From positions 192,001 through 256,000 of the IMG/VR virus record IMGVR_UViG_3300031555_003590: DNA of 64,000 bases; one strand, written 5' to 3'. Source of the DNA: a virus. Taxonomy: Duplodnaviria > Caudoviricetes. Of the stretch, positions 4,695-23,769 are shown one piece after another; position 1 is the first letter of the stretch; every line of letters begins with the position of its first letter. The notes under the pieces were generated by a model that was not told the DNA's origin, ran no database searches, and was given only the letters and a program-made list of their open reading frames with translations. The translations under genes and the position numbers were made by a program.

Positions 4695-6602
4695 ATGAGC
4701 TTTTTAGAGTATTCAAACAAAACACAATCTAATATTATTCCTCAGGAAGAATTTGAGGGATTAATTGGTGAGGTATTTGGAGTTATCTCAGATAATTTAA
4801 GTAAATCATTAGGTCCACTTGGATCTTCTGCTACTATTCTTGATGGAATGATGACTGAAGCAACTAAAGATGGTCATGCTATTTTAATGAAATATTGTTT
4901 CCATAATCGTTACAAAAAGATGATATATAATTTAATTAAAGCACCTTGTATTCGCATGAATAATACTGTAGGAGATGGTACAACAACTGCTATTGTACTA
5001 ACTAATGCATTATTTAAACAATATAATGGTGCTCCTGGTGTTAATGGACGTAAGAATGCATTTAATACTTTATATAGGCTTCCTCGTCAGTTTACTAAAG
5101 CATGGGATGAAGTTATTAATGATCTAAGAGAAAGAGTAATGAAAGCAGCTACTCCAATTGAACCAAATGATTATGATACTATTTATAATATTGCATATGT
5201 TACTAGCAATGGCAATCATGATATTTCTACAGCTATTGCTGAAACATATAAAACAGCTAAGTCTCCTTCTATAAAGCAAAAAGATTCTCCTACTAATAAA
5301 TCTTATATTAGTCCTATTAATGGATTTGATTTTCCTGCTAATCTAATTAGTGATGCATTTGTTCGTAATCAAGATCTCAGTGCTACTGAAAAAGATATTC
5401 GTATAATGATTTTTGATCATAAAATTGAAACTGATATGTTTAATAAAGTTATTGCACCCATTAATGATGTAATAAGAGCAATGGGTTATAAACTATTAGT
5501 ATTAGCTCCATATTATGATGTATATATGTGCGATACAGTAGTTGATCAATATTTAACATATGAAATGCGTACTAAAGGTAGTATTAATCTTATTATGGGT
5601 CAGTATAGTATAGGTAAACTTGAACCTCATCAGTTAGTTGATCTTGCTACTATACTTAGGGCAAAAGTTATTACTCAAGAAATGTTTACAGGATTATCTA
5701 ATACTATTGCAGGTGGTATCAATATTGATTCTTTAGTAGAAGATATTATAGAAAATGATTCATTTGAATTTTATAGATTAATTGGTCAAGCATCTGAGGC
5801 TATTCTATCTTGTAATACTGGATCTATTTTTAGAGTTACTGATATTGAAAATGATCAAAAGTATATTGATACTCTTAATCGTGCACGTAAAGATTTAGAA
5901 GATATTATATCTAAAACTGATTATGAAAAGCATTCATATTCTGCTAAGATTTATGAAGCTAATGCAAGAGTACTTCAATTAGAAATGAAAAATTATATCT
6001 ATTACATTGGTGCTGACAGTGATTTACAAAAACAAATTATTTGGGATTCAGTTGAAGATGTAATTAAGTGTGTACGTTCTGCTATCAAATATGGTGTTGT
6101 TCCTGGTTGCCAAATTACTATTGCACGTTCATGTGTAGATGCAATGAGAGAACTAGTTCCTATTGGTATTGAAAATCCTCAAGAATTTTTGGATTCTTTA
6201 TCTGATGATATTCGTCTAAAATATGGTATTTTAGATATGATCTATGATTCAGTTACTATGGTATATGCTCAAGTATTACATGGTGCTAGTGGCCAGGGTA
6301 TGGTTAAGCTGGTTGATAGATGGCAATATACTGCCAATACTCCTGAAGCTATCAAGGCATTAGAAACTGCTGCTATTCAAAAGGGTCTTGAAATTATTAA
6401 TACTAGTTTTAATGAAAATAAAACATTTGATCTAGAAACTCTTGAATATAGTGAAAATATTATTACTTCTGCAGAGACTGATAGTATGGTATTATCTGTT
6501 GCATCTGAATTAATTAAAATTTTAATTAGTGGAAATCAATGCATTTTCTTAGATAGTGAAATTAATGAAAGCCATCAAGAAACTAAAGAATTTTATGTAT
6601 AA
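4695..6602 (+). CDS. groEL: Phage GroEL-like chaperonin
   Basis: SLGPLG, TKDGHAIL, VGDGTTT and GVVPG motifs; 635 aa. Confidence 0.9.
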   Translation: MSFLEYSNKTQSNIIPQEEFEGLIGEVFGVISDNLSKSLGPLGSSATILDGMMTEATKDGHAILMKYCFHNRYKKMIYNLIKAPCIRMNNTVGDGTTTAIVLTNALFKQYNGAPGVNGRKNAFNTLYRLPRQFTKAWDEVINDLRERVMKAATPIEPNDYDTIYNIAYVTSNGNHDISTAIAETYKTAKSPSIKQKDSPTNKSYISPINGFDFPANLISDAFVRNQDLSATEKDIRIMIFDHKIETDMFNKVIAPINDVIRAMGYKLLVLAPYYDVYMCDTVVDQYLTYEMRTKGSINLIMGQYSIGKLEPHQLVDLATILRAKVITQEMFTGLSNTIAGGINIDSLVEDIIENDSFEFYRLIGQASEAILSCNTGSIFRVTDIENDQKYIDTLNRARKDLEDIISKTDYEKHSYSAKIYEANARVLQLEMKNYIYYIGADSDLQKQIIWDSVEDVIKCVRSAIKYGVVPGCQITIARSCVDAMRELVPIGIENPQEFLDSLSDDIRLKYGILDMIYDSVTMVYAQVLHGASGQGMVKLVDRWQYTANTPEAIKALETAAIQKGLEIINTSFNENKTFDLETLEYSENIITSAETDSMVLSVASELIKILISGNQCIFLDSEINESHQETKEFYV

Positions 6603-6610
6603 TTAAGTAA

Positions 6611-6642
6611 TAATAGAGGGAGCATTATAGCTCCCTCTATTA
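6611..6642. terminator. Bidirectional terminator with ATTATA loop
   Basis: TAATAGAGGGAGC-ATTATA-GCTCCCTCTATTA between convergent genes. Confidence 0.8.
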
Positions 6643-6644
6643 TA

Positions 6645-6809
6645 TTATTTATTATTAGTAACTTGATTAGTTTTCATATCTTCTCTAAGAGGAAGAGTTA
6701 CAGATAGATTCATTACTTCAGAATGAATATTTTCAGGAACATCAGATTCTTTTCGTTCACCTTTTTGAATCAATCTAGCCCAATATTTAATTAGATGACG
6801 TTTAGCCAT
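6645..6809 (-). CDS. CD1375-like small protein (54 aa, not in ORF track)
   Basis: Manual translation MAKRHLIKYWARLIQKGERKESDVPENIHSEVMNL...; RBS GGAGG; fits the CD1375 pattern Y/WxxLIxxGxxxxxDVP. Confidence 0.7.
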   Translation of the reverse strand: MAKRHLIKYWARLIQKGERKESDVPENIHSEVMNLSVTLPLREDMKTNQVTNNK

Positions 6810-6810
6810 A

Positions 6811-6993
6811 TTAATTACCTCCTTTATATTGTTTTAATGCTTTACGCTCATGACCAGTAGATCTATCATTTTTAATATCATCTTCAATCATTTTAATTAA
6901 TTCATCACGCAATCTACTATCATCAATATCTTTTAAAGATTTTGATCCATTACGAATATATTTTAAATATTCATCTAAAATTTCATTTCTCAT
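6811..6993 (-). CDS. CD1375-like small protein
   Basis: YLKYIRNGSKSLKDI...LRDEL pattern; RBS AAGGAGG. Confidence 0.6.
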   Translation of the reverse strand: MRNEILDEYLKYIRNGSKSLKDIDDSRLRDELIKMIEDDIKNDRSTGHERKALKQYKGGN

Positions 6994-7027
6994 ATATTAA
7001 CCTCCTTTATACATGATTAATTTTGAG

Positions 7028-8164
7028 TTAACTATTAGGGGGAGGTAGTATAAATCCTTGACCCATTCGTAAAGTTAGATTCTTAATATCATCAATTGAA
7101 TTAATATTCATTCGTTCAAACATTGAACGTTTTTTACAGGTATAATTAAATTCATCATCTACAGGAATATATAATCCATCAATATAATGATATTCAGAAG
7201 TTCTACTAAATGCTTTTTCTTTTGCAATACCGCCAAATGCAATCATATTACGATTATCCATTTGATCTTTAGTTTTAGTTTCACTAAGTACAGGATGATC
7301 AATAACAAATTTAGAATATTTATCAGTCAAAAAAATATATGGCCTATCCATATGACGAATAATATCCATCTCATCTAAAGAAAATCCAATATCGCCATAA
7401 TTTAAATGATAATCTTTATTATTATCATTGAATTCTTTAATAATTATGCGGAATTTTTTAGAAATATTATAATAATCTTCTTTATAATTAGGAGATACAG
7501 TCATTCCATCTGGATGTACAATGTTAGCCATTAATTCTAAATCTTCTTTAAAAATATCCCAATTCTTAGGATCTTGACCATTAAACATTGCTACCAAATC
7601 ACAATTAACATATAAACCATGTTTTTGGAATTCGTGTACAATCTCAGCTAATCTTTCAGGACTAACATGAATTCTATTTTGTCCTTTACATGCTTCTTTA
7701 TTGAATGATTGAATACCAATACTAATATGATGATATTTCATTGTATGAATCATAAAATCCATTCTTTCATCAGTCATATCAATAGGATGAATTTCTGTAC
7801 GTCTAATTCCAAATTTATCATAGTTAGGAAATATTTCAGTCATTCTTTTTAATGAATCTAATGTCCATAAACTAGGAGTTCCTCCACCAAAAAACATTTC
7901 AGATATATTTAATTTTCCTATAATTGGAGACATTCTTTCCATCATACGTAGAACAGCATTTTCATATGGAACAATTAAATGTTTATGATCATCATATTTT
8001 AATGCACCAAAAATGCAAAATTTACATACAGAACGACACCATGGATAATGTATATAAATACTTACATCTTCTCCTGCTTTCATTTCATGTTCTTCAAAAT
8101 ATTCTTTCCAAAATTGAACAAAATCATCTTCAGTTAAATATACTGGATATGTATCAAATTTCAA
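7028..8164 (-). CDS. HemN-like (class C) radical SAM enzyme
   Basis: IYIHYPWCRSVCKFC (CxxxCxxC), FGGGTPS, SIGIQSF and NCDL motifs. Confidence 0.9.
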   Translation of the reverse strand: MKFDTYPVYLTEDDFVQFWKEYFEEHEMKAGEDVSIYIHYPWCRSVCKFCIFGALKYDDHKHLIVPYENAVLRMMERMSPIIGKLNISEMFFGGGTPSLWTLDSLKRMTEIFPNYDKFGIRRTEIHPIDMTDERMDFMIHTMKYHHISIGIQSFNKEACKGQNRIHVSPERLAEIVHEFQKHGLYVNCDLVAMFNGQDPKNWDIFKEDLELMANIVHPDGMTVSPNYKEDYYNISKKFRIIIKEFNDNNKDYHLNYGDIGFSLDEMDIIRHMDRPYIFLTDKYSKFVIDHPVLSETKTKDQMDNRNMIAFGGIAKEKAFSRTSEYHYIDGLYIPVDDEFNYTCKKRSMFERMNINSIDDIKNLTLRMGQGFILPPPNS

Positions 8165-8166
8165 AT

Positions 8167-8985
8167 TTATTTATCTCCTTTCATTTCATTTACTAATTTA
8201 GCAAACTTTTTTGGAAATGAGCAATGATGTTGAAGTATGCATGGTTTACAAATACTAGCTCTTTCACATGTATAACATTCCATAACCATAGCAGGTTTTA
8301 CATCATGAGGACATTTATGAGTTAATGTCCCATCAGGATTTAATGTATAAACTCCACTACAATCAAAGTACCAATGATTTATTCTATCTGCAATTTCATT
8401 TGGAATATCTGATCTCCATTTAGTATATAATTCACATAAAAAATCGTCTACTCTTTCAAAATATTTTGAATCCATATTTCCATTATAATGTTCTAATTTA
8501 ATACGTTTAAACATTGAAGCATTCCATTGATCAACTATTTTTAAAAAATTATCTACTCCAAAATTAAGAAGATCATCATCCATTGTAATTAATAATGAAG
8601 GTTTTACTTTAGTTATTCCGCTTAATTGTTTGCAATTATTATACCAAACATCATATTGAATTTTAGTAAATCTATTAGGATTCCATGATGTAGCAACACT
8701 ACCTAATTTATTATAATATTCAATTAATTTATCATTCAATATCATTAAATTGGTAGAAATAGATGAAATCTTTTTATTATTAATTTCACATTCATTTATA
8801 ATATCAAACATTCTATCTTGATAGATAGTAGGTTCTCCACCAAATAGAATTATTCTTCCATCAAATGATAATAATTTTTCTAAGAATTTTTCTTTATTAA
8901 AATCATCTTCAAGTTTATATACATCACAATGAGGACAGGATAAATTGCATTGTCTAGTTATTAATGCATATAAAGTTTTTCCCAT
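8167..8985 (-). CDS. Radical SAM enzyme with Cys-rich SPASM-like C-terminus
   Basis: CNLSCPHC, FGGEP; C-terminal DC...LNPDG...CP...CYTCERASICKPC...C. Confidence 0.9.
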   Translation of the reverse strand: MGKTLYALITRQCNLSCPHCDVYKLEDDFNKEKFLEKLLSFDGRIILFGGEPTIYQDRMFDIINECEINNKKISSISTNLMILNDKLIEYYNKLGSVATSWNPNRFTKIQYDVWYNNCKQLSGITKVKPSLLITMDDDLLNFGVDNFLKIVDQWNASMFKRIKLEHYNGNMDSKYFERVDDFLCELYTKWRSDIPNEIADRINHWYFDCSGVYTLNPDGTLTHKCPHDVKPAMVMECYTCERASICKPCILQHHCSFPKKFAKLVNEMKGDK

Positions 8986-9001
8986 ATAATAATACCTCCT
9001 A

Positions 9002-9982
9002 TTATAAAATCCATCCAGATTTAAGGATTCTAGATTCTAATTTTTTCATTTCAGTACAATAATTAGGATCTAATTTTGCTTCAATACGATTAACTTCACA
9101 TCCATTACATAAATTAAATAGTTCACAATATGCGCATTCTTTTGTAATAAAATCATTATAATTAATATGCTCATATTTAGGAATATAATCTGGATTAATT
9201 AATTCATCTTTAGGAATTTCAATACCCATTGATAATTTTTCATCGCATGTTCCAACATGCATAATATCATTATTATCAATATATACACATCTGATTGTAG
9301 AATTGCAAGAATGTTGAATATTATATGGACAAGTCCCCTTATGTCTATATTTACAATTCCATTCATAATCTTCAAGTCCAGCATCAATAATATCTAAATA
9401 ATGTTTCATCATTTTATATCGTTGATAGCCGATAGACTGATAACCAACTCCAACAGCTCTATTCAATTTACAAATAGTACCTAAACGTTTTGCTAATAAA
9501 ATATGATCCATGACAGTATTTTCATTGTCATCATCAATTACTGCAATAAACATTGGAACTCCTTTATCAGGTACATATTTTTTAAAACGTTCAATTACAT
9601 CAATGAACATTTCTTCAGTAAATATAGTATCTTTATTCCATCGTCTAGTATTACCATAATTAAATGAAGTAGTAATTTTAAACCATTTTTCATTAAATAA
9701 TGGAGCCCATTTTTCAGGATGAAGATAAAAATCTTTCAAGTTAGTAGTAGGACTAATATTTACATTAGGCATTAATTCATGTAATTCATAATAATAATCA
9801 GGTTGCATTAATAAAGGTTCTCCACCAGTAATAATAATTGTGGTAGGATTCATTTGTTTAATTAATTCTTTAATCTTATTAGGAACTTTTTCATCTTTAG
9901 GATGTTGAATTGTCATATCACCAGCAGAACAAAATGTACATGAAAAATTACATCTGCCAGTTGGTTTAATAATTAATTCCAT
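9002..9982 (-). CDS. Radical SAM/SPASM peptide-maturase-like enzyme
   Basis: IIKPTGRCNFSCTFC, TGGEPL; SPASM-like CP...C...GTC...CAYCELFNLCNGC...C. Confidence 0.92.
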   Translation of the reverse strand: MELIIKPTGRCNFSCTFCSAGDMTIQHPKDEKVPNKIKELIKQMNPTTIIITGGEPLLMQPDYYYELHELMPNVNISPTTNLKDFYLHPEKWAPLFNEKWFKITTSFNYGNTRRWNKDTIFTEEMFIDVIERFKKYVPDKGVPMFIAVIDDDNENTVMDHILLAKRLGTICKLNRAVGVGYQSIGYQRYKMMKHYLDIIDAGLEDYEWNCKYRHKGTCPYNIQHSCNSTIRCVYIDNNDIMHVGTCDEKLSMGIEIPKDELINPDYIPKYEHINYNDFITKECAYCELFNLCNGCEVNRIEAKLDPNYCTEMKKLESRILKSGWIL

Positions 9983-10034
9983 ATATTAATATCCTCCAAT
10001 TAATTCAATATTTTACATAAAATGTTAAAACGAT

Positions 10035-10074
10035 TGATATAGATTATATCCCAAATGGGATATAATCTATATCA
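10035..10074. terminator. Long hairpin between accessory genes and radical SAM genes (terminator or processing site)
   Basis: TGATATAGATTATATCCC-AAAT-GGGATATAATCTATATCA. Confidence 0.6.
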
Positions 10075-10080
10075 TTAATA

Positions 10081-11316
10081 TTATTGAATCATTGATAAAC
10101 GTTTTAATGCATCAGCAATATCTGCATCAATTTGATTCTGAACTTCTTGATGTAATTTAGTATGAAGTTCTTCCGGTGATAAATTTTCATCATCATTTAT
10201 TTCAGATATCGTATTATTTGTAATATAAAAATCCATCGAAGTTTCATTATTTTTAATATAATTATAAATAGGACCTGAATAATTTTCAGAATATTCAGAT
10301 GGATTTTGTACAGATGATTCTAATTTATCTTTTTCAGCTGAATTAGTAAAAATAAAATATGGATTACAAATATTATTGATTATTTTATACATGTTATCAT
10401 CGGTATTTAAATCAGAAATATGAGCATTAATTATATCACAAGGCCTCATACTAATAAGCATATCACTTTCAATATTATTCTTCATTAAATAAATTACTGC
10501 AGGAATTACAGGTAATTTTAAAAATTGAGCAATGATTAATTTGATATAATCATCATCCGACGCAGATGTAATTTTACCTTGAGAAATTCTAAAATATAGC
10601 GGTGCAGTTAATCCATTTTTACAAATAGATTCAAACATTTCAAATACTTCATCAGTAGTTCTACCTGCAAATCCTAATTCTTTTTTATTAATATCCCAAT
10701 AAAAAATATTTTCAGGGATATCTTGTTTAGAATAATATTCATAAGGAAGATTTACACATAAAGCTGGAAATTTATACATATATTTATTAATTTTAATATC
10801 ATCATAATATACACTTTCTGTAAACATTGCATATTTAATTTCATCTGAAATTGTTCCAAAAGGAAGTGAATCATTATATACTTCAATATCTTTTTCACTT
10901 TGAATTTTAATTTTATCTAATACTTGTCTAAATGGAATTTTACAATTATTTCCATTATAAATGTTTAAAATCATATCAATATTACCAAACTTAACTGCTC
11001 TAAAATAATCAAAAGTAGGAATAAATATATCTGCATTACTAAAATATTCAGATACTTGATATCCATCAACTAGATCTGTATATTTCGATGTATCTGATTC
11101 TTTTAGACCATCTTCATATTTTAATAAAAATTTAGGAAGATTAATTTCTTTTTCAGATAAAATTTGTTTTACTTCATCTGCAGTTAATTTAATTACTTGC
11201 TTTGTAGAACGATGACGAAGAATATCAGTGTTACATTTAGATACAAATGCTTTATCTAATGTCATAACTGGAAGTTTAATTTTAGATTTTAATTCAGAAT
11301 AAATAATATCATTCAT
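10081..11316 (-). CDS. Hypothetical protein with degenerate ParB/sulfiredoxin-like segment
   Basis: 411 aa; FESICKNGLTAPL...KLIIAQFLKLPVIPAVI resembles the ParB N-terminal fold but lacks the DGxHR motif. Confidence 0.6.
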   Translation of the reverse strand: MNDIIYSELKSKIKLPVMTLDKAFVSKCNTDILRHRSTKQVIKLTADEVKQILSEKEINLPKFLLKYEDGLKESDTSKYTDLVDGYQVSEYFSNADIFIPTFDYFRAVKFGNIDMILNIYNGNNCKIPFRQVLDKIKIQSEKDIEVYNDSLPFGTISDEIKYAMFTESVYYDDIKINKYMYKFPALCVNLPYEYYSKQDIPENIFYWDINKKELGFAGRTTDEVFEMFESICKNGLTAPLYFRISQGKITSASDDDYIKLIIAQFLKLPVIPAVIYLMKNNIESDMLISMRPCDIINAHISDLNTDDNMYKIINNICNPYFIFTNSAEKDKLESSVQNPSEYSENYSGPIYNYIKNNETSMDFYITNNTISEINDDENLSPEELHTKLHQEVQNQIDADIADALKRLSMIQ

Positions 11317-12055
11317 CTATATCTACCTCTTCTTCTTGTATTAATAAATTATTTATTTTATCAACAAAATCATTTTGAACATCTTCAGGAGCAAAGAAAA
11401 TATTTAAAAGATTAATAACTGGAAGATTTTTATTAATTCTAGCAATTGAAATTTGATCTTCTCCATCAAAATACTTACTATAAAATTTCATATTAGAAGT
11501 ATCTACATTTTGGAATATAATTCCAAAATATTTTGATATCGTTAAACGTGAGAAATTTTTAAAATTAATTTCATCATAATCAGTATTTTCAAATTCTTCA
11601 TCAAATTCAATCATATCAGATCCAGTCGCACCTGATTTAATATATTTATATATTCCCAATACTGTAAGTGATGCAATTAAATTATATATATTATTAATTA
11701 ATTCTATATTTCTAATTTTAAATAAATCAATTTCACTTGAATTTAAAATTCCAGTAATATCATTATCTAAATATTTAGATAATAAAATATCAATCCATGT
11801 ATCAATCATTTCTTTATTCATACTAGATATATCGCCAGTCATAAACATTAAAATGAATTTCTCTTTATCTTCATATGAACATTTACTGAAGTCTAAATTA
11901 AGATCAAGATCAATATTGCGTAAAAAAATAAATGTTGCTCTAATTTTTACATCATCGTTACAGGGGAATTGTAACTGACTCATATCAACAGGGATGCTTG
12001 TTATATCTGGTAAATCTAATAATGATAAATCAAATGGTAATGTTAAATATTCCAA
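11309..12055 (-). CDS. Hypothetical accessory protein of the radical SAM cluster
   Basis: 248-aa acidic ORF overlapping the next gene; immediately follows the Cys-repeat protein. Confidence 0.7.
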   Translation of the reverse strand: MEYLTLPFDLSLLDLPDITSIPVDMSQLQFPCNDDVKIRATFIFLRNIDLDLNLDFSKCSYEDKEKFILMFMTGDISSMNKEMIDTWIDILLSKYLDNDITGILNSSEIDLFKIRNIELINNIYNLIASLTVLGIYKYIKSGATGSDMIEFDEEFENTDYDEINFKNFSRLTISKYFGIIFQNVDTSNMKFYSKYFDGEDQISIARINKNLPVINLLNIFFAPEDVQNDFVDKINNLLIQEEEVDIDE

Positions 12056-12080
12056 TAGTGTTACCTCCTATAGAACTTTA

Positions 12081-13340
12081 TTAATCTGAATAACAATCAT
12101 CATGACAATCATCATGACAATCTCGATAACAATTATTATGACATACTGTATGACACATCTCATTAGTGTATTCATAATTATATTTACTAGTATTATTCCA
12201 TGCAGTTAAACATGCACTCAATAATTGAGTAATATTAGTGGCACTAATAACAGAACCAACTTTAATTGAATGAGATACTGCACTACCAGTACTAGTAACA
12301 GTAGTAGTACTATCATATGATGGATAAACACTAGATGGAATAGTATAATTATATACTTTAGTAACAGTAGTTCTAGTTATATAATAATTATAACTTCCTT
12401 TAGAAATAGCATTCCATTGAGTTTCAGTACCAGTATAATTTACAGTAGTTAACGATGAAGTATTATAGAATGATCTTACCCCAATACTAGTAATTGTATT
12501 TGGAATAGTTATTGTATTTAATGCTGTACAATAATAAAAAACATAAGTTCCAATTGTTTTTAATTTATTACCAAGAATTGCAGAAGTTAATGCAGTACAA
12601 TTATAGAATGCATTATTTCCAATAGTAGTAGTATTAGGAGAAAGAGTAATACTAGTTAAAGCAGTACATCCATAAAAAGCTCTATATCCAATACTATATA
12701 CAGTATCAGGCATAATAATAGACTGTAAATTAGTATATCCTTGAAATGCACTATCTGCTATACCCATTACTCTATAATTTCCAACAGTTTCAGGAATAAT
12801 AATTTTAGTTAAACTAAAACATGAATCTTTTACAGGAGTAATAAATCCAGTAGTAGCATCAATAGTAAAATAACTTTCTGGAGTTGTTGTAAAATTAGTT
12901 GTACTAGTTTTATATCCGATGTTACGTACATAATTATTGGTAAAAACAACTTTACCGCTTTTTGTAGCTTTTAGTATATACCTATCATAAATAACTTGTC
13001 CTTTAGTATATCCATTACTATCATGAGTACTTTCTGCAATATGACTTTCATGTAAATATCGTACATATGAAAATGTACCTACTCTAGTAAGATTTTTAGT
13101 AGTATTAATAATAGCATTAGCTAAAGTTGAAGCTGAAATTTTTTGACCAACTATACCAATTTCAGGTGTAGGAAGATTTGATATATCATCCATCATAGTA
13201 GAAGGAACACATTGATATTGACCTTCCATTGGAGGATTTCCTTTATGATATGCATTAGCTTTAATTGTATTTAAAACAGTTGAAGTAAATAAATTAATAA
13301 TATCAGCACGTTTAATAGCACTGCCAGCACTAACAGCCAT
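12081..13340 (-). CDS. Tail-associated protein with BspA-type (LRR_5) repeats and C-terminal (Cxxx)6 Cys repeat; candidate radical SAM substrate
   Basis: IGxxAFYxCTxLTSITLP-type repeats; C-terminus CHTVCHNNCYRDCHDDCHDDCYSD. Confidence 0.85.
   Translation of the reverse strand: MAVSAGSAIKRADIINLFTSTVLNTIKANAYHKGNPPMEGQYQCVPSTMMDDISNLPTPEIGIVGQKISASTLANAIINTTKNLTRVGTFSYVRYLHESHIAESTHDSNGYTKGQVIYDRYILKATKSGKVVFTNNYVRNIGYKTSTTNFTTTPESYFTIDATTGFITPVKDSCFSLTKIIIPETVGNYRVMGIADSAFQGYTNLQSIIMPDTVYSIGYRAFYGCTALTSITLSPNTTTIGNNAFYNCTALTSAILGNKLKTIGTYVFYYCTALNTITIPNTITSIGVRSFYNTSSLTTVNYTGTETQWNAISKGSYNYYITRTTVTKVYNYTIPSSVYPSYDSTTTVTSTGSAVSHSIKVGSVISATNITQLLSACLTAWNNTSKYNYEYTNEMCHTVCHNNCYRDCHDDCHDDCYSD
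12084..12155 (-). repeat. 12-nt tandem repeat encoding six CxxX units
   Basis: Plus strand: acaatcatcatg acaatcatcatg acaatctcgata acaattattatg acatactgtatg. Confidence 0.85.
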
Positions 13341-13383
13341 ATTTTACACTCCTTTTCTAAAATATATTTTATAAGCTTAGTAA

Positions 13384-13414
13384 TAATGGGTGGGATATAA
13401 TATCCCACCCATTA
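13384..13414 (-). terminator. Hairpin terminator with TATAAT centre
   Basis: TAATGGGTGGGA-TATAATA-TCCCACCCATTA. Confidence 0.7.
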
Positions 13415-13432: not shown

Positions 13433-13915
13433 TTAGGCAAAAACTGCATTAAATGCTACCCAAGCATTGCCAGTATAAACTTTAACAAGTTTATTAGCAG
13501 TATCAAACCATACATCTTTATTATTAGTTGGGCTGCTAGGTGCAGTAGCTCCTACAGTAAAACGAATACCACCAACAGTATCTGAATTACCACCACCAGC
13601 AATAAATGTTGTTGGGATACCAGATAGATCTGAATATTTACCAGTATGAGCTACAGTAGATAAACCGGTAATCATAGTATATGGGTGAGTTGCAGGGTGA
13701 GGATTGTTTAATGCTCCAGCTTCGATCCCTGCAAGTTTAGTTTTCTCATTAGTCGTATAATTATTGGTACTGAACCCAGGAGTAGAACCATTAGCCAATC
13801 TATGATTTGATGCACCACCAGAACCTAAATGGTTATCAAAGTCAGTTACAACTTTATCCCATTTATTACGTTCATCAACACTAATATGTTGTTTAATTTG
13901 AGAATTATCAGCCAT
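13433..13915 (-). CDS. Short tail-fibre-like protein
   Basis: HISVDERNKWD, EKTKLAGIEAGA, HPATHP, LSTVAHTGKYSDL, and C-terminal APSSP...VWFDT...VKVYTGNAW segments typical of phage fibres. Confidence 0.75.
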   Translation of the reverse strand: MADNSQIKQHISVDERNKWDKVVTDFDNHLGSGGASNHRLANGSTPGFSTNNYTTNEKTKLAGIEAGALNNPHPATHPYTMITGLSTVAHTGKYSDLSGIPTTFIAGGGNSDTVGGIRFTVGATAPSSPTNNKDVWFDTANKLVKVYTGNAWVAFNAVFA

Positions 13916-14019: not shown

Positions 14020-17000
14020 TTATCTTACTGCAGTAATATTAATAATTAGATTTTTGCTACCCATACGGAATTCATATATATTATCAACATCAGTACTATT
14101 GATAATTACATTAAAGTCATCAGTACTAAAGTTAATTCCAGTAATAGTAGAATCAGTAATAGTAGCAGTTAAAGTTATAAGATCAGCTTCAAATGCAGCA
14201 TCTAAATCAGATTCAACTGTAACACCATCAATTTGATTAATAGTAATTGTATATTCACTATCTTCAGGTTCAGTTGTGGTTAATTTACGATAAGGAGGAG
14301 CAACAATATAATTTGAAGCCTTTCTCATAAAGATTCGAGCACCAGTACCAATTATTGGTACACCATTTGTAAACATATCAGAAGCACTATATACAGTTGA
14401 GAATGTCTGACCATTTGTACCAACATTGATAGCAGCTTGTTTATTAATTGTAACATTAGAAACCATTGAATTACAATCACGCATAAATAGATCCATACTA
14501 TTATCGCCAGTTATATTATCAGGAATTTTAATTGGTTTATTAAATGCATGGCATTCAGTCATAAAATTACGTAAACAAGCTTTTCCAGAAATTCCTTCAG
14601 GAATAGTAATAGATTGGTTAAATGATTTACAACACATCAAAAATCTTTCAAGACAACCATCACCAGTTACAACATCAGGAATTTTAATCGGTTTATTAAA
14701 GCTAGTACATCCATAAAGGAATCCATGTAAACAATTACTTCCATAAATATTTTCAGGAATAATTACATTAGAATTGAAACTAGTGCAATTTCTCATGAAA
14801 TATTTTAGACATCTATCTCCACCAACACTATCAGGAATAGTAATAGACTGATTGAAATTTGTACATCCCATTAGGAAGTTTCTTAAACAATCATCACCAT
14901 GCACAGTAGTTGGAATATGATTTAAAGATGTTAGATTAATGAAATTACGACCAAAATTTCGTAAAGAAGAAATATGAGGTTCATCTTCATTATATGCATC
15001 AACTAATATAATTTCACAAGAATTAGATATATTTCCACAAGTAACTGTAACTGTTAGAGTATTCCCAACAGACTCATTCATACCAATATAAAGTTCTGCA
15101 GATAATTTATCATCAGATGGAGTTATTTGAGTTCCACTAAAGAATAGGAATCCTTCATCAGTAGCACCTGATACAGACCATTCAATATTATCAATTGAAT
15201 CATTTACAATTGAATCATCAGTACCAAGTAATGATATGTTGAAGTTTACAGAAGTACTCGAGTAATCTTTGTAAATAGTTTTTGATACAGCATCCATATT
15301 AATAGCATAAATTTTACTTTCATAATCAGATGTATCTCCGACAGAAATTAACAGTTTCTTATTATAATCACTATTAATACCAAATCCATCATTAATAGTT
15401 GCATCAAGTATCATATATCCAGAATTATTACCTGCTAGAATTAAATAGGTTGAACTTGCATCACTTGTAGGAATATTAAGCAATTTAGTTCCATCAGGAA
15501 TCTCAGTTGCATCCCAAATAATAGTTTTATTAGTTGTATTAGTAGGAGTAATAGTAGTAATTTCAGATAAGTTTAGATATTTAGTATTATCAATTTCTCT
15601 TCCATATACATCAATTAATTTATTATCAGAAGTAAATATTGTACCATCTTCAAATAAAACATATCCATTTGGTAATCTAATATAATTTCTTACAGTTGCT
15701 ATAGAATTAACTTCTTCTAATACTTCTAATGAACTAATTTCATCAATATTAAATGTAATATCACTTAAAATACAGATTTGATTAGAAGAATCGATATATG
15801 CACCATAAGGAAGATTAATATTGACATCACCATCTTGGTTAGTTCCTAATTCAGTAATTCCGCTATCAATATTATATGTATATTCATCAGGAAGTTTAAT
15901 TGATGTTCCATTTTTAATTGTGGTTGTATCAGGAAGTAATACAATATCGTTTTTATAATCAATTACAATACCATGAGTTGTAATACGATATAATATTTCT
16001 CCATGAGTATAATCTATTTCAGGATCATAATCAAATATAATATTAGCATTAGTTAATGGATCATTACCAATGGTACCAATAGTAATATTATTCCATTCTT
16101 CTTCAGTACCAGTATATTTTATTGTAGTTAGATTAACACATTCTGCAAATGCATTGTCACTAATACCAGTAACAAGTATGCCTAAAATTACTTTTGGAAT
16201 AATAATTTCACTATATTCTTTAGCCTTTTTAATTACTCCGCTAATAGTACCGGATTCGTCAATAATTACAAGAATTTCTTCTCCAGTAGGAACAATTAAA
16301 TCACCATTTGTATCAAGAATAGTACCAATTGGAATTTCAACTAAACTATTATCATATCTAATAAATGTATCAGGGAATTGAATTAATTTAGGATCAACTG
16401 TAAATATAGTATCAGCATATTTTAGATTTAGAATTAAATCTTCTTCATCAGAATTATTATATCTAATTAATGTACCATCTGAATGCATAAATATATTATT
16501 AGGAAGAAAATGCATTCCATAAAATGAATTATCTGCATCTATAGATATACAACCATCTTGATTATCAGATGGAGTAACATCAGCAAATGAAGATTTTTCA
16601 ATTTCAGGTTCTATAAATTCATATGTTTCAATTTTATCATTAGATAAAGTAATATCTGTAACAGGTACAGTATTATCTTCATGAGTACTTTCAGTCCAGA
16701 ATTCAACTGCTGTAATTTGATCTTTACGGAAAGTTGTACCATCAATAGTAATTGTAGAATCTGAAGGTAGATCTGTACAAAGATTATTTAAATCAGCCAT
16801 ACTATATACTTTAACATTAGCTCCAGTGTTAAGAGTTAAAGTTAAAATAGGATTAGTATAAGTGGTATCTTGTGCAATTGCTCTTATAGTAAATAATTTA
16901 GTATAAGAATCACCAGCTTGACTTAAATCATACCAATCAATTGCATCACCTTGACCATTCTGTACAGATGCCTGAATAGTAAATTCGCCAGGATGATCAC

Positions 17001-19989
17001 AATAAATAATATTATTTGTATCTCCTTTTAATACTGCACCAGCATTATTAGGATATTGATCTTGATCAAAATGAACATCATCCATTCTCCAGATTAAATC
17101 AGTATAACTAGGAACTTCTTCATCCCAAGTAGGATTATGATACCCAATACCACCATTTGTTTCAAGTTCACCAGATATAATAAAATCTTTACCTACAGGA
17201 ATTTCTAATGGTACATTAGAAACATCTTTAATTGCAATGAATGGAGGAAGTGTTTCAATTGTATAATTTTGAGAATAATCTTCACCAGGACTAGGTCCAA
17301 GACCAAATGGAACTTTTAAAGTGATATTAATTTTACCAGGGTCATATGGGAATAAATAATTTTCTTCTCTAGCCCAATCAAAGAAATCACTTATAGCTTT
17401 ATGGCTAAATGTAGTTTTGGCAGGATTAAAGATAATGCTATCTGCTCCACCATATTCTTGAGCTCTAGAAGATCTCCACTGTAATGTTGGTGCAGAAGCA
17501 TTCCAAGGATATACCACAGATTGATCAAGTAAAACTGGATAATGACAACGCAATGGTTTAGGAAGTTTAAGTTCAACATTTGTAATAGGAACATAAACGT
17601 CTTTTGCTGCAGGAGGAATAATTTTAATACCTGCAGTTATACTGAAATCCTTTCCTTCATTATATCCATCAACAATAGTCAGTTTCATAACAACTAAAGG
17701 TTCCATATCAGAAGTCATGTTATGAGGATCGATTTGAATAGTATTATTAGAAGAATCAAATATAGCATTTGCAACACTAGCATCAATCATTTCCATAATA
17801 ACAGTAGTTTTAGTTGCATTAGATGGTGTTACTGTTGTACTTAAAGTAATAGGAGCACCATTAGTTGTATTTGGATCATATTCAGTAGGATTAAGTTCAA
17901 TATTTTCAACTGGAACCCATGCAGCTTCAACTTTAAAAGTGAAACTTTTAACAAAATTTTGTGAAGAACCTTTACCATTTAAAACTGTTGCAGTTAATGT
18001 AAATTCACCAGTTCCAGTAAAACTAATTACTCCATCATTAATAGCAGCACCTGTAGATCCTGGAGATGAAATATTAAAAATAATATCACGATTATCAGCA
18101 TCATCAGGTGAAACTTTACCAGATAGAATAATAGTATTATCTGCTCTAATAGTAGATGGAAAATTTACTAAAGTAATATCAGTTACAGGAACAAATGCTT
18201 TTGCAATAGTAACAACAAATTCTTTACTAAAATCAAGATTTGGAGAAATACCTTTAGCTACTGTAGCTTTAAGTTTTAAAGTACCAGCTGCTTCAGCTAA
18301 TAATTTATTTCCACTACTAATAGTAGCACCTGTACTACCTGCATCAATAATAGACCATGTAATAGTTTTAGCCGATGCAGTTGATGGTGAAACTGTACCA
18401 GTTAAAGTAGAAGTAACACCAGCAGTTGCATTTGTTAATAATCCAGTAATATCAGTTACTGATACATATGTTGGTACATTAATATCAATTGTATCTTCAT
18501 ATAAACCATCTATAGTAGTAGCAGTAATAGTAACATCACCTTCATGAATTGAAAGAGCATTACCATTTTCATCAATCTGAATTACATTAGAATCACTGGA
18601 TTTCCAAACTACTTTTGGTTTAGTTGCATTAGTAGGAGTAATACTAATATCAAATTTTTGTTCACTACCAAGTATCATAGAACTAATATTAGGTGTAATG
18701 GTAATTGATTTTAATTCAATATTAACAGTTACTTGAGACATAGTAGTTCGTACAGTAGTTGCACCAGGACTACTAACTTCACAATAGTAATAGTAAACTC
18801 CTGCTTCAATATTTGAAGGAATTTCATAAGTAGCTTTATTTCCATTAGCAACAGCAATAGCCCCGCTAAAAGAATTAACATGATTGCGATACCATTTATA
18901 TGATATGATACCATTATCCGATTTTGCACTAACATAAATAGATTGATCAATAGAACCGTGTACTAGTGCAACCTGCTCAGTAGGTTGTGCTATAATGCTA
19001 ATTGTATTTGGTTTTGCATAGATACTGAAGTCTTTACTAAAATTACCTCCTTCTTCACTAGCTCCACCAACAACAGTACCACGTAGTACAATATCACCAG
19101 TAGTATTAGCTGTTAAACTATCTCCATTAATTGTTGCATCTCCAGATACAATAGTCCATGTAATACCTTGTACAGTTGAATCAGTAGGAAATACAGTACA
19201 AGGAGATAGATCAACTTTAAGACCTGCAGTTATAGTTTCAGGAACATTAAGAATATCAGTTACTGGGACAAATTCAGGCTCTATAACAATTATTTTGATA
19301 TTAAAACTAGCATTAGCACTACGATAAACAATTATACATGGAGAGTTAGATGGATAAGGAGTTTCCATATCAAATTTAATTACTGCATTATCACTATTAG
19401 TAGCAACAACTTCAGGATTTTTAAGATTGATAATAGAACCATCGCCCATTCTAGCTCCCCAATGATCATCTCCTGCTGAAATAGTAAATTCAATATCAGC
19501 AAGTTGTAAAGGAAATGGAATAGTGGCAATTAAACGATCAACTAATCCATTTTCATATTTACCACCGTTATATCCTTCAGTAGTAAATGCAAAATGACCA
19601 CTTAATGTATTTTCACTAAATGGTCTTTCATCTCCTGTATGCTCTTTGATATTAAATGTTGCAGTATCACTTCTATATACAAGAGTACAAGGAGAATTAG
19701 CGGCATATGCTGTAGCCATATCAAATTCAACGATACTATTATCGCGATTCTGATATAATACTTTAGGATTGGAAAGGGGGATGATAGAACCATCCCCCAT
19801 TTGAGCACCCCAATCCTCGGCACCGCTAGAAATTATAAAATCTACATCAACATTTTGAAGTTGATATACTATAGAAAAAATGCATTTCTTAACACTACCG
19901 GTTGAATCACTTTTAATTCCATCTAAACCGTCTAGTGTAAATCCATAATAACCGGTACGTTGATTAATCAGTGCCATATTGGTACTCAC
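14020..19989 (-). CDS. Giant adhesin-like virion protein (Ig-like/Big_2 repeats, BspA remnant, 26-aa LRR-like repeats)
   Basis: About 7 xVPVTDI-initiated Ig-like repeats, a Big_2-like ITPTNATKPKVVWKSSD, and C-terminal CLxxFxxxCxxFNxxIxIP repeats; true start may be ATG 19977. Confidence 0.8.
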   Translation of the reverse strand: MSTNMALINQRTGYYGFTLDGLDGIKSDSTGSVKKCIFSIVYQLQNVDVDFIISSGAEDWGAQMGDGSIIPLSNPKVLYQNRDNSIVEFDMATAYAANSPCTLVYRSDTATFNIKEHTGDERPFSENTLSGHFAFTTEGYNGGKYENGLVDRLIATIPFPLQLADIEFTISAGDDHWGARMGDGSIINLKNPEVVATNSDNAVIKFDMETPYPSNSPCIIVYRSANASFNIKIIVIEPEFVPVTDILNVPETITAGLKVDLSPCTVFPTDSTVQGITWTIVSGDATINGDSLTANTTGDIVLRGTVVGGASEEGGNFSKDFSIYAKPNTISIIAQPTEQVALVHGSIDQSIYVSAKSDNGIISYKWYRNHVNSFSGAIAVANGNKATYEIPSNIEAGVYYYYCEVSSPGATTVRTTMSQVTVNIELKSITITPNISSMILGSEQKFDISITPTNATKPKVVWKSSDSNVIQIDENGNALSIHEGDVTITATTIDGLYEDTIDINVPTYVSVTDITGLLTNATAGVTSTLTGTVSPSTASAKTITWSIIDAGSTGATISSGNKLLAEAAGTLKLKATVAKGISPNLDFSKEFVVTIAKAFVPVTDITLVNFPSTIRADNTIILSGKVSPDDADNRDIIFNISSPGSTGAAINDGVISFTGTGEFTLTATVLNGKGSSQNFVKSFTFKVEAAWVPVENIELNPTEYDPNTTNGAPITLSTTVTPSNATKTTVIMEMIDASVANAIFDSSNNTIQIDPHNMTSDMEPLVVMKLTIVDGYNEGKDFSITAGIKIIPPAAKDVYVPITNVELKLPKPLRCHYPVLLDQSVVYPWNASAPTLQWRSSRAQEYGGADSIIFNPAKTTFSHKAISDFFDWAREENYLFPYDPGKINITLKVPFGLGPSPGEDYSQNYTIETLPPFIAIKDVSNVPLEIPVGKDFIISGELETNGGIGYHNPTWDEEVPSYTDLIWRMDDVHFDQDQYPNNAGAVLKGDTNNIIYCDHPGEFTIQASVQNGQGDAIDWYDLSQAGDSYTKLFTIRAIAQDTTYTNPILTLTLNTGANVKVYSMADLNNLCTDLPSDSTITIDGTTFRKDQITAVEFWTESTHEDNTVPVTDITLSNDKIETYEFIEPEIEKSSFADVTPSDNQDGCISIDADNSFYGMHFLPNNIFMHSDGTLIRYNNSDEEDLILNLKYADTIFTVDPKLIQFPDTFIRYDNSLVEIPIGTILDTNGDLIVPTGEEILVIIDESGTISGVIKKAKEYSEIIIPKVILGILVTGISDNAFAECVNLTTIKYTGTEEEWNNITIGTIGNDPLTNANIIFDYDPEIDYTHGEILYRITTHGIVIDYKNDIVLLPDTTTIKNGTSIKLPDEYTYNIDSGITELGTNQDGDVNINLPYGAYIDSSNQICILSDITFNIDEISSLEVLEEVNSIATVRNYIRLPNGYVLFEDGTIFTSDNKLIDVYGREIDNTKYLNLSEITTITPTNTTNKTIIWDATEIPDGTKLLNIPTSDASSTYLILAGNNSGYMILDATINDGFGINSDYNKKLLISVGDTSDYESKIYAINMDAVSKTIYKDYSSTSVNFNISLLGTDDSIVNDSIDNIEWSVSGATDEGFLFFSGTQITPSDDKLSAELYIGMNESVGNTLTVTVTCGNISNSCEIILVDAYNEDEPHISSLRNFGRNFINLTSLNHIPTTVHGDDCLRNFLMGCTNFNQSITIPDSVGGDRCLKYFMRNCTSFNSNVIIPENIYGSNCLHGFLYGCTSFNKPIKIPDVVTGDGCLERFLMCCKSFNQSITIPEGISGKACLRNFMTECHAFNKPIKIPDNITGDNSMDLFMRDCNSMVSNVTINKQAAINVGTNGQTFSTVYSASDMFTNGVPIIGTGARIFMRKASNYIVAPPYRKLTTTEPEDSEYTITINQIDGVTVESDLDAAFEADLITLTATITDSTITGINFSTDDFNVIINSTDVDNIYEFRMGSKNLIINITAVR

Positions 19990-22900: not shown

Positions 22901-23769
22901 CGTTTAACATAAATAATACAATCCTGACTTTCATTATTTTGATAATCAGTTGCAGGTTTCAAAGCAAAATAAGTAATATCATCATTTTCAACAGTTGGTA
23001 ATACATCTCCATATTGAAGTACATAATTAGGATTCCAGTTAGTAGCATGATATTCAACTAACTCAGCTTTACTTTGTCTATCATCCCAATATATATTTAA
23101 ATAATTAAAGAAAGATTCTCTAAGATTAGTAAACATATCATCAATTTCTTGACGACTATATGTACCAACTTGATGTGCAGTAGTATGATGAGGATTATTT
23201 AAATCATAAATATGATCATCAACAGTTTTCTGATCAGCTTTATTATTCCATTTACCACGTTCTACTTCAGTAATATGCATTGCAGTATTACTAATATGAG
23301 AATGCAATGTACTCATTGGAGCCATAGAATTCCAACGGCTGCGTTCAACATCAGTTACATGAATAGAATTATCATTAACATGAGTACTAAACTGAGACAT
23401 TGGAACTTTTGTATCTAGAGCATCACCAATTGCTCTTTCGCTTACAACTTTTTGATGTGAACGTACAGTAGGATCAGAATTAATAGATTTCAATACTTCC
23501 ATTGATCCTACAGTACCTCGTACACCAGTCCAAGTCATAAGTTGATTAGGAACACCAGGTTCAATTGTAGATTGTTTTTCATTAATTAAACGATAAATAC
23601 TTTCCAATTCATCGAGTAGATTAGTGGATTCATCATCCATATTTCTCTTAATAGCTTCATATACGGAAATAGGATATGAATAATCATAATCATAATCAGG
23701 AATTGGGGTTGGATTTGGGTCATGCCAAATTCGAGATTGAATAATTCTTTTATCCTTTAGCTGTCCCAT
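19996..23769 (-). CDS. Long tail-fibre-like protein
   Basis: HxxDxxNPHxxTAxQIG repeats, GLGNVNNTSD, GKDGYTPIKGVDYF, LSANMGR x2, RIATT x2, and a duplicated C-terminal FTFDGxxWRLxNP domain. Confidence 0.8.
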   Translation of the reverse strand: MGQLKDKRIIQSRIWHDPNPTPIPDYDYDYSYPISVYEAIKRNMDDESTNLLDELESIYRLINEKQSTIEPGVPNQLMTWTGVRGTVGSMEVLKSINSDPTVRSHQKVVSERAIGDALDTKVPMSQFSTHVNDNSIHVTDVERSRWNSMAPMSTLHSHISNTAMHITEVERGKWNNKADQKTVDDHIYDLNNPHHTTAHQVGTYSRQEIDDMFTNLRESFFNYLNIYWDDRQSKAELVEYHATNWNPNYVLQYGDVLPTVENDDITYFALKPATDYQNNESQDCIIYVKRPGMVWQEVGFQAMKVGDLVIRYPDTAMYVWVQGRFTGLFAGGNNDNSGDTDTGSSNSDMMWRPVFDETTGELSWVKSKETTAPGPYIIKGKDGYTPIKGVDYFDGTNGQGVPIGGLTGEVLVKMTDSNYDTTWRGIMDVLGDLIIGGDGLPSGIVSWDMIKGRPEWYNELGDNEDGFITQRAATRQFEIVNDNVTEILEKITGNGGIDSIKEDLYEHINDYSNPHRTTATQIGAVPVATFTDHTQNFYNPHNVTAQQIGLGNVNNTSDMDKPISNAVQEALDDLLDKIGTVTGDITLINFVDDVEWNDSTTTLTFIYKNGTEKSIQIPITEVFKNITFDANEGELVILLPDGNENRIDISSMIKVYTGSMSKNVQVEVLDDNSIKASVLPGTISEDEIKPSTNLPGSPTTTTQPVTDKSTRIATTEFVRKQVVDNLISYETDRPLSANMGRILNQNKVDVNDIMEIINDLESVDVIDNLESTNSLAALSANMGRMLELTKAPRVHTSPSASTFGRATISLFGHTKAADIDPLMDGTVFRGTDDGTYARGDHRHPTDETRAPVHFPDTTHDITELTGEPRAVIAPDNSNDNRIATTAWIRRNAVGVQFGDCETESANNIKVVTLRSDFMENPVFMRQTGSTVVVNFAEDDLATENVYMNVHGSGNAMIIYGGKPIINGMIKANHTYTFTFDGNNWRLENPSGTHTLPDDDNSNAFVSSEWVRRNLVGVSNGESATASGNPNKVATLRSTYMDPVVFMRQIGTTVAITFANEDRSGELDTTLNVNDTGAAVILFAGAPLTTGMLGKNHTHMFTFDGTYWRLINPVPGTGIGGPDGINIGPGKPATGDGSDDDTAEMVINQLSGHSGTTVNNSDGVSTVSDENGQVNTVWFNINYTPKSGNVEVTISEVEGAWAARMGDGSYIRLSDPTIIEITNTNAIVQFIMETPYPANSPCQLVYRTNKAWINVKEV

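Follow-up and report, generated by a model that had tools for sequence, protein, structure and literature searches.

We analysed a stretch of 64,000 nucleotides (hereafter, the window) corresponding to bases 192001-256000 of the virus record IMGVR_UViG_3300031555_003590, a Caudoviricetes genome of 292,119 bp with about 28% G+C, rated complete by CheckV, near-identical DNA of which occurs in at least seven animal faeces metagenomes, with no RNA run among the carriers listed. A run of genes on the minus strand of the window encodes a 419-amino-acid (aa) protein ending in a repeated Cys-His motif and, downstream of it, three radical S-adenosylmethionine (SAM) enzymes. We consider it likely that the flexible tail of this protein, which would belong to the fibre module of the virion, undergoes radical SAM maturation, and that the core of the system is formed by a 326-aa enzyme and a 248-aa partner protein. 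Homology, gene coupling, the class of the enzyme and the presence of one homologue in virions were observed, and from these we infer that the tail is the substrate.

The 419-aa protein (12081-13340, minus strand) consists of a family body (residues 1-141 and 360-395), a leucine-rich repeat (LRR) insert (12396-12878, minus strand, about residues 155-315) and the C-terminal Cys-His tail (12084-12155, minus strand, residues 396-419), the proposed modification site, in which six C-[H/Y]-x-x units follow one another; its C-terminus is CHTVCHNNCYRDCHDDCHDDCYSD. The Cys-repeat tail had already been noticed in a first-pass annotation made from the sequence alone, and it is not a chance feature, because a genome-wide pattern search for at least four consecutive Cxxx units matched, in 292 kb, only the 419-aa protein and one other. 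With the tail masked, the protein is recognised by its sequence as a divergent relative within a large family whose usual ending is (CHxS)3-RGRR. This Cys-His-tail virion protein family is defined in the present analysis and not in the literature; the window protein shares with it the homology of the body, the units, in this case six, a partner gene 25 nt downstream and the enzyme gene 2.1 kb downstream on the same strand, and lacks the canonical ending of three units plus an R-[GSNA]-R-R C-terminus. Its six-unit tail is homologous to the (CHxS)3-RGRR tails found elsewhere. Six-unit tails ending in CYSD were found in five distinct orthologues, namely the window protein and those of the related loci L015, L283, L284 and L285, none of which has lost any of the six Cys or of the six aromatic positions.

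The AlphaFold2 (AF2) model of the 419-aa protein had a mean predicted local distance difference test (pLDDT) score of 80.6, with a confident body and a tail below 50, placed after a helix and a strand; the tail is therefore predicted to be disordered and, as such, accessible. The insert was assigned to LRR_5 (PF13306, BspA/TpLRR-type) with 114 bits against a cut-off of 27.7 (E 5e-33), and its solenoid aligned with TpLRR of T. pallidum (6mlx) at a VIA-align Z of 21.1, with a root-mean-square deviation of 2.3 over 170 residues. Since the 210-213-aa orthologues L283, L284 and L285 lack the LRR yet share the six-unit tail, the LRR is a recent insertion into a loop of the family body, and it points to a surface-exposed, host-binding role. 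Fold searches with the whole model were dominated by LRR proteins, so that the family body was barely probed, and a search of BFVD returned at rank 35 a 296-aa protein of phage Atu_ph07, which is the length of the virion protein gp170 discussed below. Homologue searches with residues 325-419 found only the protein itself, and a single-sequence locus search with the full protein gave only generic LRR matches. In faecal metagenome contigs, the LRR-coding positions 12501-12626 were covered at 20-50x the surrounding depth by diverged contigs of other organisms; thus, the LRR repeat is widely shared in this habitat. Contigs of four faecal runs aligned to positions 11300-13400 contained no variants and hence allowed no population-level test of selection.

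To describe the motif, we compiled 469 units from 157 family proteins; the sample was partly chosen by the pattern itself, and the subset seeded by the enzyme gave the same statistics. Position 1 was always Cys, position 2 was His in 464 units and Tyr in 5, position 3 was small, and position 4 was Ser (378), Asn (61) or Asp (9), that is one of these three in 448 of 469 units (96%). About 145 of the 157 members ended in RxRR, a pattern by which part of the sample had been selected. Canonical tails are stretches of 16 residues, compared with 24 in the window protein, with a conserved hydrophobic residue before them and a basic RGRR end. The first reading of the tail as a '(Cxxx)6 core' was right as to the six units, but the conserved unit is C-H-x-[S/N/D] rather than a Cys-periodic CXXX, and the analogy with the thioether-forming Cys-periodic peptides (SCIFF, CXXX repeats) does not hold, His being conserved like Cys and Tyr being its sole replacement. 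Within each unit, H/Y-x-S/N/D fits both the aromatic-X-X motif of the triceptides and the S-H-x-S-S motif of HxsA; an aromatic-X-X motif was present in all six units of the window protein and in 469 of 469 units of the family. Because neither the triceptide nor the HxsA motif accounts for the Cys, its invariance suggests that it takes part in a second reaction or serves to bind an auxiliary cluster.

The tail protein and the radical SAM genes are coupled across very distant phages. Homologues of the 326-aa enzyme numbered 278 in the protein collection, on contigs of up to 563 kb, and 299 in IMG/VR; a single-sequence locus search with this enzyme had found nothing, and an alignment-based scan was needed. 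Around enzymes only 30-35% identical to it, from marine and freshwater phages, a 126-290-aa protein ending in (C-H-x-S)3-R-G-R-R was found within 10 kb. A protein ending in Cys-His repeats was present in 25 of the 33 enzyme-seeded loci with full 10-kb flanks, and in 32 of 33 when an extended tail or the 248-aa partner was also counted, the tail gene of those seven loci probably lying just past the flank. In the reverse direction, the DNA pattern of the tail alone matched at least 120 IMG/VR stretches; the enzyme was present in 19 of the 25 with at least 8 kb downstream, it lay on the strand of the tail gene in 35 of the 36 enzyme-carrying loci, and in three of five apparent misses it was located in another part of the fragment. 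By chance, C-H-x-x-C-H-x-x-C-H is expected at a negligible frequency. When the tails were masked, an iterative hidden Markov model built from residues 1-165 recovered 108 Cys-His-tail proteins among its 114 hits in 10,168 open reading frames (ORFs), showing that the bodies, and not the tails alone, are homologous. The functional tie between the tail protein and the neighbouring radical SAM genes, proposed at first from this one locus together with the idea of looking for their co-occurrence in other phages, is thus borne out by a recurrence of the two families in both search directions, among phages whose enzymes are 30-35% identical.

Bdellovibrionota contigs, the largest of 2.4 Mb, also contain enzyme-tail pairs, and the tail family, the enzyme and the 248-aa homologue are found together in hundreds of phages and in Bdellovibrionota chromosomes. 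Cultured carriers include the Ralstonia phages RSF1 and RSL2, the Burkholderia phages FLC6 and FLC8, the Pseudomonas phage pPa_SNUABM_DT01, the Sinorhizobium phage Phosso and the Agrobacterium phage Atu_ph07, which have three or four radical SAM genes around the tail gene and, in RSF1, additionally a cupin and two 2-oxoglutarate oxygenases. Two loci with canonical tails (L026:10001-19294 and L020:4993-11748) contain up to seven radical-SAM-like genes, several of them recognised by Pfam weakly, in one co-directional operon with a single tail gene. A 4,268-bp contig of the Dysosmobacter segnis BX15 assembly (L246) carries a gene of the 326-aa family and encodes a protein with six CHxS units and RGRR at its C-terminus; it may derive from a phage carried by, or contaminating, this gut Oscillospiraceae culture and hence give a hint to the host of the gut members.

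Directly downstream of the tail gene, the 248-aa protein (11309-12055, minus strand) belongs to a family without Pfam or PDB relatives. By iterative profile, this family was found in 196 of the 252 loci surveyed. Its gene and the tail gene shared a strand in 173 of 174 loci, the median distance between them was 1 nt, and in 105 they were immediate neighbours; 730 representative clusters were counted in 1.84 billion proteins. The 248-aa family is, therefore, as much the core of the system as the enzyme. Profile searches of Pfam and PDB gave nothing significant, and the protein atlas contained no usable match for the 248-aa protein or for a family representative. Because its gene comes right after that of a fibre-module protein and the corresponding partner is not on the virion list of Atu_ph07, it is probably a candidate chaperone or substrate adaptor; by analogy, HxsD or PqqD are possible counterparts. 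Some family members (P0184, P0189, P0191 and P0209) carry fused N-terminal extensions of 130-340 residues, acidic and variable, with a conserved MSEQEKK start and no Cys-His motif. The next gene encodes a 411-aa protein (10081-11316, minus strand) that had no Pfam, NCBIfam or PDB match, only a weak protein-atlas lead to proteins of the ParB/sulfiredoxin fold (score 0.85), and homologues in just 14 loci of the survey, confined to this clade. The two had been annotated as accessory proteins of no recognised kind; neither has a family match, but only the 411-aa protein is an accessory, the 248-aa protein being the most tightly coupled partner of the system.

Evidence from virus particles is available for Atu_ph07. 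The tail protein of this phage (L219), of 296 aa and ending in CHSSCHASCHNSRSRR, has a computed mass of 31.89 kDa, equal to that given for gp170 in the published proteome. There, gp170 was detected in virions purified with polyethylene glycol (PEG) by 8 unique peptides covering 35% of the sequence (Table S5, PMC6102473), whose virion list contains neither the radical SAM proteins (gp165, gp168, gp171) nor the partner protein (gp169). By homology, this suggests that members of the Cys-His-tail family are virion-associated and that the enzymes are not; it also agrees with the view of the first-pass annotation that the supposed precursor is a full-size, folded and probably virion protein. Furthermore, gp170 was distributed over gel fragments 1-9 of the boiled virion proteins with peak abundance in fragment 1, the topmost, which holds proteins of 87-127 kDa, whereas proteins of about 30 kDa peak in fragments 7-8 (PMC6102473). 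This odd mobility is compatible with a covalent species of high mass, sodium dodecyl sulfate (SDS)-stable oligomers being the alternative.

Turning to the enzymes, the annotation of three radical SAM proteins was correct: PF04055 (cut-off 29.5) matched the 326-aa (9002-9982), 272-aa (8167-8985) and 378-aa (7028-8164) proteins, all encoded on the minus strand, with 60.0, 37.6 and 50.2 bits, respectively, and their CX3CX2C motifs are C11/C15/C18, C13/C17/C20 and C43/C47/C50. In the 326-aa enzyme nine more Cys are invariant in 25 homologues, and a SPASM-type motif, C283-x2-C286-x5-C292-x2-C295, is present. Its AF2 model (pLDDT 94) matched over the full length, in Foldseek searches of PDB, the maturases anSME, ChlB, SuiB and CteB (E 2e-8 to 3e-7, query TM-score (TMq) 0.59-0.70). 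The best match was anSMEcpe (4k39, TMq 0.70), followed by ChlB, SuiB, CteB and SkfB; matches to MoaA, NifB and viperin were much weaker, with a TMq of 0.44-0.47 for the NifB/MoaA type. Fold and Cys pattern together identify it as a SPASM-type protein or peptide maturase, as first annotated; it has no N-terminal leader-binding (RRE) domain.

None of the curated families claimed it. Among the best 25 of its 36 NCBIfam hits, to which these statements refer, the top one was HxsC, with 30.8 bits against a cut-off of 267.9; HxsC gave 24.0 bits with the 272-aa enzyme, and HxsB 17-19 bits against 370, which places the window enzymes outside the HXS families (TIGR03976-03979). Models of the 3-CyFE type (YhhB, FxsB, AmcB) matched with E values of 5e-6 to 0.02, far below cut-off. 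Neither TIGR03942, the anSME family, nor TIGR04115 was among the listed NCBIfam hits of the three window enzymes, and the tail contains no C-x-P/A-x-R, the anSME target.

The 272-aa enzyme, with a Cys-rich C-terminus (perhaps a partial SPASM or a twitch domain), shows C-x2-C-x5-C-x2-C near this end and shares PHROG 1802 with the 326-aa enzyme, of which, by sequence comparison, it appears to be a shorter paralogue. It is related to ORF070 of RSF1 (E 2e-10), the gene directly upstream of the RSF1 tail gene, and its homologue comes after that of the 326-aa enzyme in L015-L027. The 378-aa enzyme would be of the HemN-like (class C) type, its core matching E. coli HemN (1OLT) with E 6e-13 over residues 18-212 and a GGGTP motif being present; the HemN, HemW and ChuW models of NCBIfam gave 60-77 bits against cut-offs of 205-504, and there was no HemN_C hit in Pfam. 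This gene is indeed present at the locus, but as a clade-specific accessory, found in 8 of 252 loci, rather than as a regular part of the system. A complex prediction that paired the 326-aa enzyme with the C-terminal 69 residues of the tail protein, three 4Fe-4S clusters and SAM reached ipSAE values of 0.00 and 0.01 and gave no answer either way.

Radical SAM maturation is known for the RiPPs, which are peptides made by the ribosome and modified after translation, and for a few proteins, namely sulfatases, QhpC and, since 2026, HxsA. QhpD is a SPASM radical SAM enzyme that staples the structural subunit QhpC, the gamma subunit of quinohemoprotein amine dehydrogenase, with several intrachain Cys cross-links; we found no sequence relation between it and the window enzymes. 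We found no report of radical SAM maturation finishing the proteins of a virus particle. The first-pass annotation knew of no characterised system of this kind, and our search of the literature on CXXX repeats, jumbo-phage radical SAM enzymes and phage RiPP or SPASM structural proteins also found no description of it; the maturation of whole proteins, however, has precedents in anSME, QhpD and HXS. A paper on marine viruses mentions radical SAM genes only to give their number, which reaches 12 in one T4-like genome (PMC5332604).

In the antiphage system HXS (HxsA with HxsB, HxsC and HxsD), the target of two radical SAM enzymes is the whole protein HxsA (Li et al., Nat Commun 2026, PMC13128918). 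As in the window, a full-size protein with tandem repeats of the His-x-Ser type is accompanied by radical SAM enzymes and a partner protein, which in HXS is small and binds one of the enzymes (PMC13128918), and the essential S-H-x-S-S of HxsA resembles the C-H-x-S-C of our tail. On the other hand, HXS is a defence of bacteria that sends its effector to the periplasm, and its repeats have a period of 3 and no Cys, whereas here the enzymes are not members of its families, the 248-aa partner comes from an unrelated family and the substrate would be a virion protein of the attacker. With anSME (PDB 4K36-4K39), the best fold match at TMq 0.67-0.70, the 326-aa enzyme has in common a minimal SPASM architecture, the absence of an RRE and enough conserved Cys for two fully ligated auxiliary clusters; anSME acts on a Cys in a whole protein, and the same is proposed for the 326-aa enzyme. 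The two are, nevertheless, only 17-19% identical, with no TIGR03942 match above cut-off, and the anSME target is mimicked only in the last unit of canonical tails (C-H-S-S-R) but not in this clade.

In the triceptides, three-residue cyclophane RiPPs made by SPASM enzymes of the 3-CyFE type such as HaaB, HtkB and ChlB, an aromatic-X-X motif is cross-linked, His-C2 being joined to the C-beta of the third residue (PMC11499958). Their motif fits H/Y-x-S/N/D in every unit, Tyr as the sole substitute of His is what this chemistry predicts, and the triceptide synthase ChlB is among the best fold matches of the 326-aa enzyme; they differ by short leader-core precursors, leader recognition and the lack of an invariant Cys before the unit. 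Ranthipeptide and CXXX systems resemble the window tail in the fixed spacing of Cys in a C-terminal core, and the enzyme PapB accepts Cys-Xn-Asp with n = 0-6 (freyrasin, PMC9413430). Asp often stands three residues after Cys in the tail of this clade; in the wider Cys-His family, by contrast, it fills position 4 in as few as 9 of 469 units, with an invariant His, and the window enzymes have no significant match to the TIGR04115 or PapB models.

On this basis the following order of events can be proposed. In the infected cell, before assembly, the 326-aa SPASM enzyme would modify the tail, working, like anSME, with no RRE domain and probably assisted by the 248-aa partner as chaperone or adaptor. 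Additional steps would fall to the 272-aa paralogue and to the HemN-like enzyme, the latter perhaps adding a one-carbon unit. The modified 419-aa product would then be mounted in the tail-fibre module. Our guess is one small intrachain ring per tail unit. As to its chemistry, we tentatively favour, by analogy, a link from the His/Tyr aromatic ring to the C-beta two positions on, as in triceptides and probably in HXS; a Cys thioether, in place of this link or together with it, is conceivable with only slightly more doubt, and what is left of our expectation goes to other chemistry, e.g., formylglycine or a built metal centre. As an outcome, an accessory protein of receptor binding could gain a rigid, protease-resistant tip that may also cross-link or bind metal. 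A bolder and more doubtful idea is that phages and predatory Bdellovibrionota share a radical-chemistry 'curing' of their prey-gripping apparatus, in which a SPASM enzyme and an adaptor of about 245 aa cross-link C-H-x-S units by a new type of covalent bond, some perhaps between molecules, which would account for the 32-kDa member at the top of the SDS gel, and that in the window genome six units and an LRR equip this device for host recognition.

Several points weigh against radical SAM maturation of the tail. All the links are genomic, and maturation itself stays a prediction; the three enzymes stay below the cut-offs of all curated NCBIfam families; and the virion evidence concerns a distant homologue in a PEG-purified preparation, where the high position in the gel could be due to SDS-stable oligomers. 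Moreover, recognition may be different in this clade, whose tail does not have the RGRR end kept almost without exception in other members, the orthologue L017 has a degenerate tail yet retains the enzyme, and a CXXX-repeat-type maturase in the same genome could also act on the Cxxx-periodic tail.

This second Cys-repeat system spans genome positions 277588-283618 (L014:5588-11618, minus strand) and comprises a 759-aa enzyme, a U32-like protein of 316 aa and an 892-aa CXXX protein. The 759-aa protein (281339-283618, about 70 kb away) contains a TIGR04115 domain with 334 bits (cut-off 350), the sole match in the genome, and is also matched by the TIGR03906 model, which does not match the window enzymes; it shows a short Hint/intein-like match at residues 198-231, and its homologue in L024 has 1083 aa. 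Genome searches with TIGR04114 and TIGR04116, the models of the CXXX target and of an associated protein, found no match, but neither did the controls, so that they were uninformative. The adjoining 892-aa protein has eight runs of CXXX units, dozens of units in all, with no Cys-His pairing. The two Cys-repeat systems may show cross-talk in this clade, and a genome carrying both is a good place to ask how their substrates are kept separate.

Each of the rival explanations we considered is less well supported than radical SAM maturation of the tail by its neighbours. The six-unit tail could be a second substrate of the distal TIGR04115-like maturase, which would install thioethers while the adjacent trio does other or partial work. 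Besides the presence of this enzyme next to its own CXXX protein, the idea gains from its distribution, since a TIGR04115-like enzyme is found in the records with non-RGRR tails (this one, L022 and L024) and absent from L020 and L026, which have RGRR tails, and from a U32-like gene that stands beside the CXXX maturase here and beside the 326-aa enzyme in L016, L017 and L022. The correlation, however, comes from five records, and the 100-kb fragment with the closest LRR-type orthologue, though only 37% complete, has no TIGR04115 match; the tail keeps the C-[H/Y] signature missing from the 892-aa protein, and the 326-, 272- and 248-aa genes are tightly linked to the tail gene in every orthologue, which makes this explanation quite improbable to us. 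Somewhat less improbable, although still unlikely, is that the tail is a plain metal or Fe-S site, e.g., one holding a trimer, with the radical SAM enzymes otherwise employed or building the metal centre. The invariant residues, Cys and His, are the classic ligands of metals, metal ions bound by His are used in fibre proteins of other phages, and the up to seven radical-SAM-like genes around one tail gene in some relatives recall cofactor assembly lines. A metal site leaves unaccounted for the fact that only Tyr replaces His and that position 4 is limited to S/N/D, while the two-way gene coupling at 30% identity argues for a direct functional link and the enzymes that match it best in structure act on side chains of proteins, the NifB/MoaA type being the poorer fit in fold.

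The tail is also short, disordered and C-terminal, like a core peptide, so that one may think of a true RiPP, in which the body is an oversized leader and the modified peptide is released as toxin, signal or metallophore; the hydrophobic residue and the basic end that flank canonical tails, and the weak peptidase-U32-like gene accompanying the system in this clade, could be read in the same way. Characterised U32-family proteins, though, are mostly Fe-S hydroxylases and not peptidases, and no protease or exporter is conserved in the cassette. Bodies that are conserved, one of them with an LRR of receptor-binding type, make no sense for a leader to be discarded, and the whole Atu_ph07 member, at 35% coverage, is in the virions, which makes release of a peptide very unlikely. 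Hardest of all to credit is that the radical SAM genes have nothing to do with their structural neighbours and serve instead as auxiliary metabolic genes or in the modification of DNA or nucleotides. Jumbo phages often modify nucleotides, and the enzymes gave weak N-terminal matches to viperin, QueE, MoaA and NrdG models; these matches, however, cover only the shared cluster-binding region and are far below cut-offs, the full-length fold matches are protein and peptide maturases, and the linkage to the tail gene is specific and works in both directions.

If maturation of the tail by the neighbouring enzymes is real, hundreds of phages from gut, soil and sea, together with predatory bacteria, spend from one to more than seven Fe-S enzymes on a short structural stretch, which would imply an important property of the tail (stability, attachment, metal binding or covalent assembly) and probably a Cys-His motif cross-linked by new chemistry. 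Cultured carriers (Atu_ph07, RSF1, RSL2, FLC6 and FLC8) open the system to direct tests. To these, the window adds a natural variant in which the motif is doubled, the basic end is lost and an LRR provides a receptor-binding scaffold, as well as the 248-aa protein as the most tightly coupled partner and the co-residence with a separate CXXX-repeat system.

The genes described above are part of a single tight minus-strand run, with intergenic gaps of -8 to 98 nt, in which all the ORFs of the first-pass annotation were found in place. The run is headed by a 1257-aa tail fibre (19996-23769), with Phage_fiber_rpt at 46 bits (Pfam cut-off 27) and several tail-fibre PHROGs, followed by a 1989-aa Ig-like fibre or adhesin (14020-19989), with a Big_2 domain (Pfam, 44.6 bits) and a match to PHROG 215, 'structural protein with Ig domain'; the fibre and adhesin labels thus stand. 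Homologues of the fibre occupy the same position in L016, L017, L022 and L024, and the Big_2 protein is syntenic in the relatives. The 160-aa 'mini-fibre' (13433-13915), with weak tail-fibre PHROG matches, has homologues 49-65% identical at the same position in L015-L017, L022, L024 and L283-L285, and its gene lies directly upstream of the Cys-His-tail gene throughout this clade. Close relatives share the order fibre, adhesin, mini-fibre, tail protein, 248-aa, 411-aa, 326-aa and 272-aa protein. A search of GenBank phages with the region by blastn found no match. At the other end, the 60-aa ORF (6811-6993) and the 54-aa ORF (6645-6809), the last of the run, are kept in the nearest relatives only (4-5 loci). 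They had been taken for two CD1375-like proteins, which was not confirmed, the 54-aa ORF giving 12.5 bits (E 0.09) with NF040910, whose cut-off is 22.5, and the 60-aa ORF no match; the 54-aa ORF matched PHROG 1382 at 6e-6.

A perfect hairpin (10035-10074, minus strand), with an 18-bp stem and a z of -4.5, divides the run into a structural and an enzyme half; it lies in the gap that separates the 411-aa gene from that of the 326-aa enzyme, the first of the radical SAM genes. Orthologous hairpins were found at L015:9900-10000, L283:5344-5436, L284:4603-4694 and L285:3309-3407, so that, in the five relatives including the window, stems measure 17-19 bp and z ranges from -4.5 to -6.6. Stem and apex show compensatory changes among the relatives, and a U-rich stretch and then a conserved AACAUUUUAUGUAAAAAU box follow. 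The hairpin may be an attenuator, terminator or processing site that sets the proportion between structural and enzyme transcripts. At its end the run meets a phage gene of the Cpn60/GroEL-like kind (4695-6602, plus strand), which converges on the radical SAM genes, with a 14-bp two-way terminator hairpin (6610-6643) in between, and keeps its position in L015, L017 and L283-L285.

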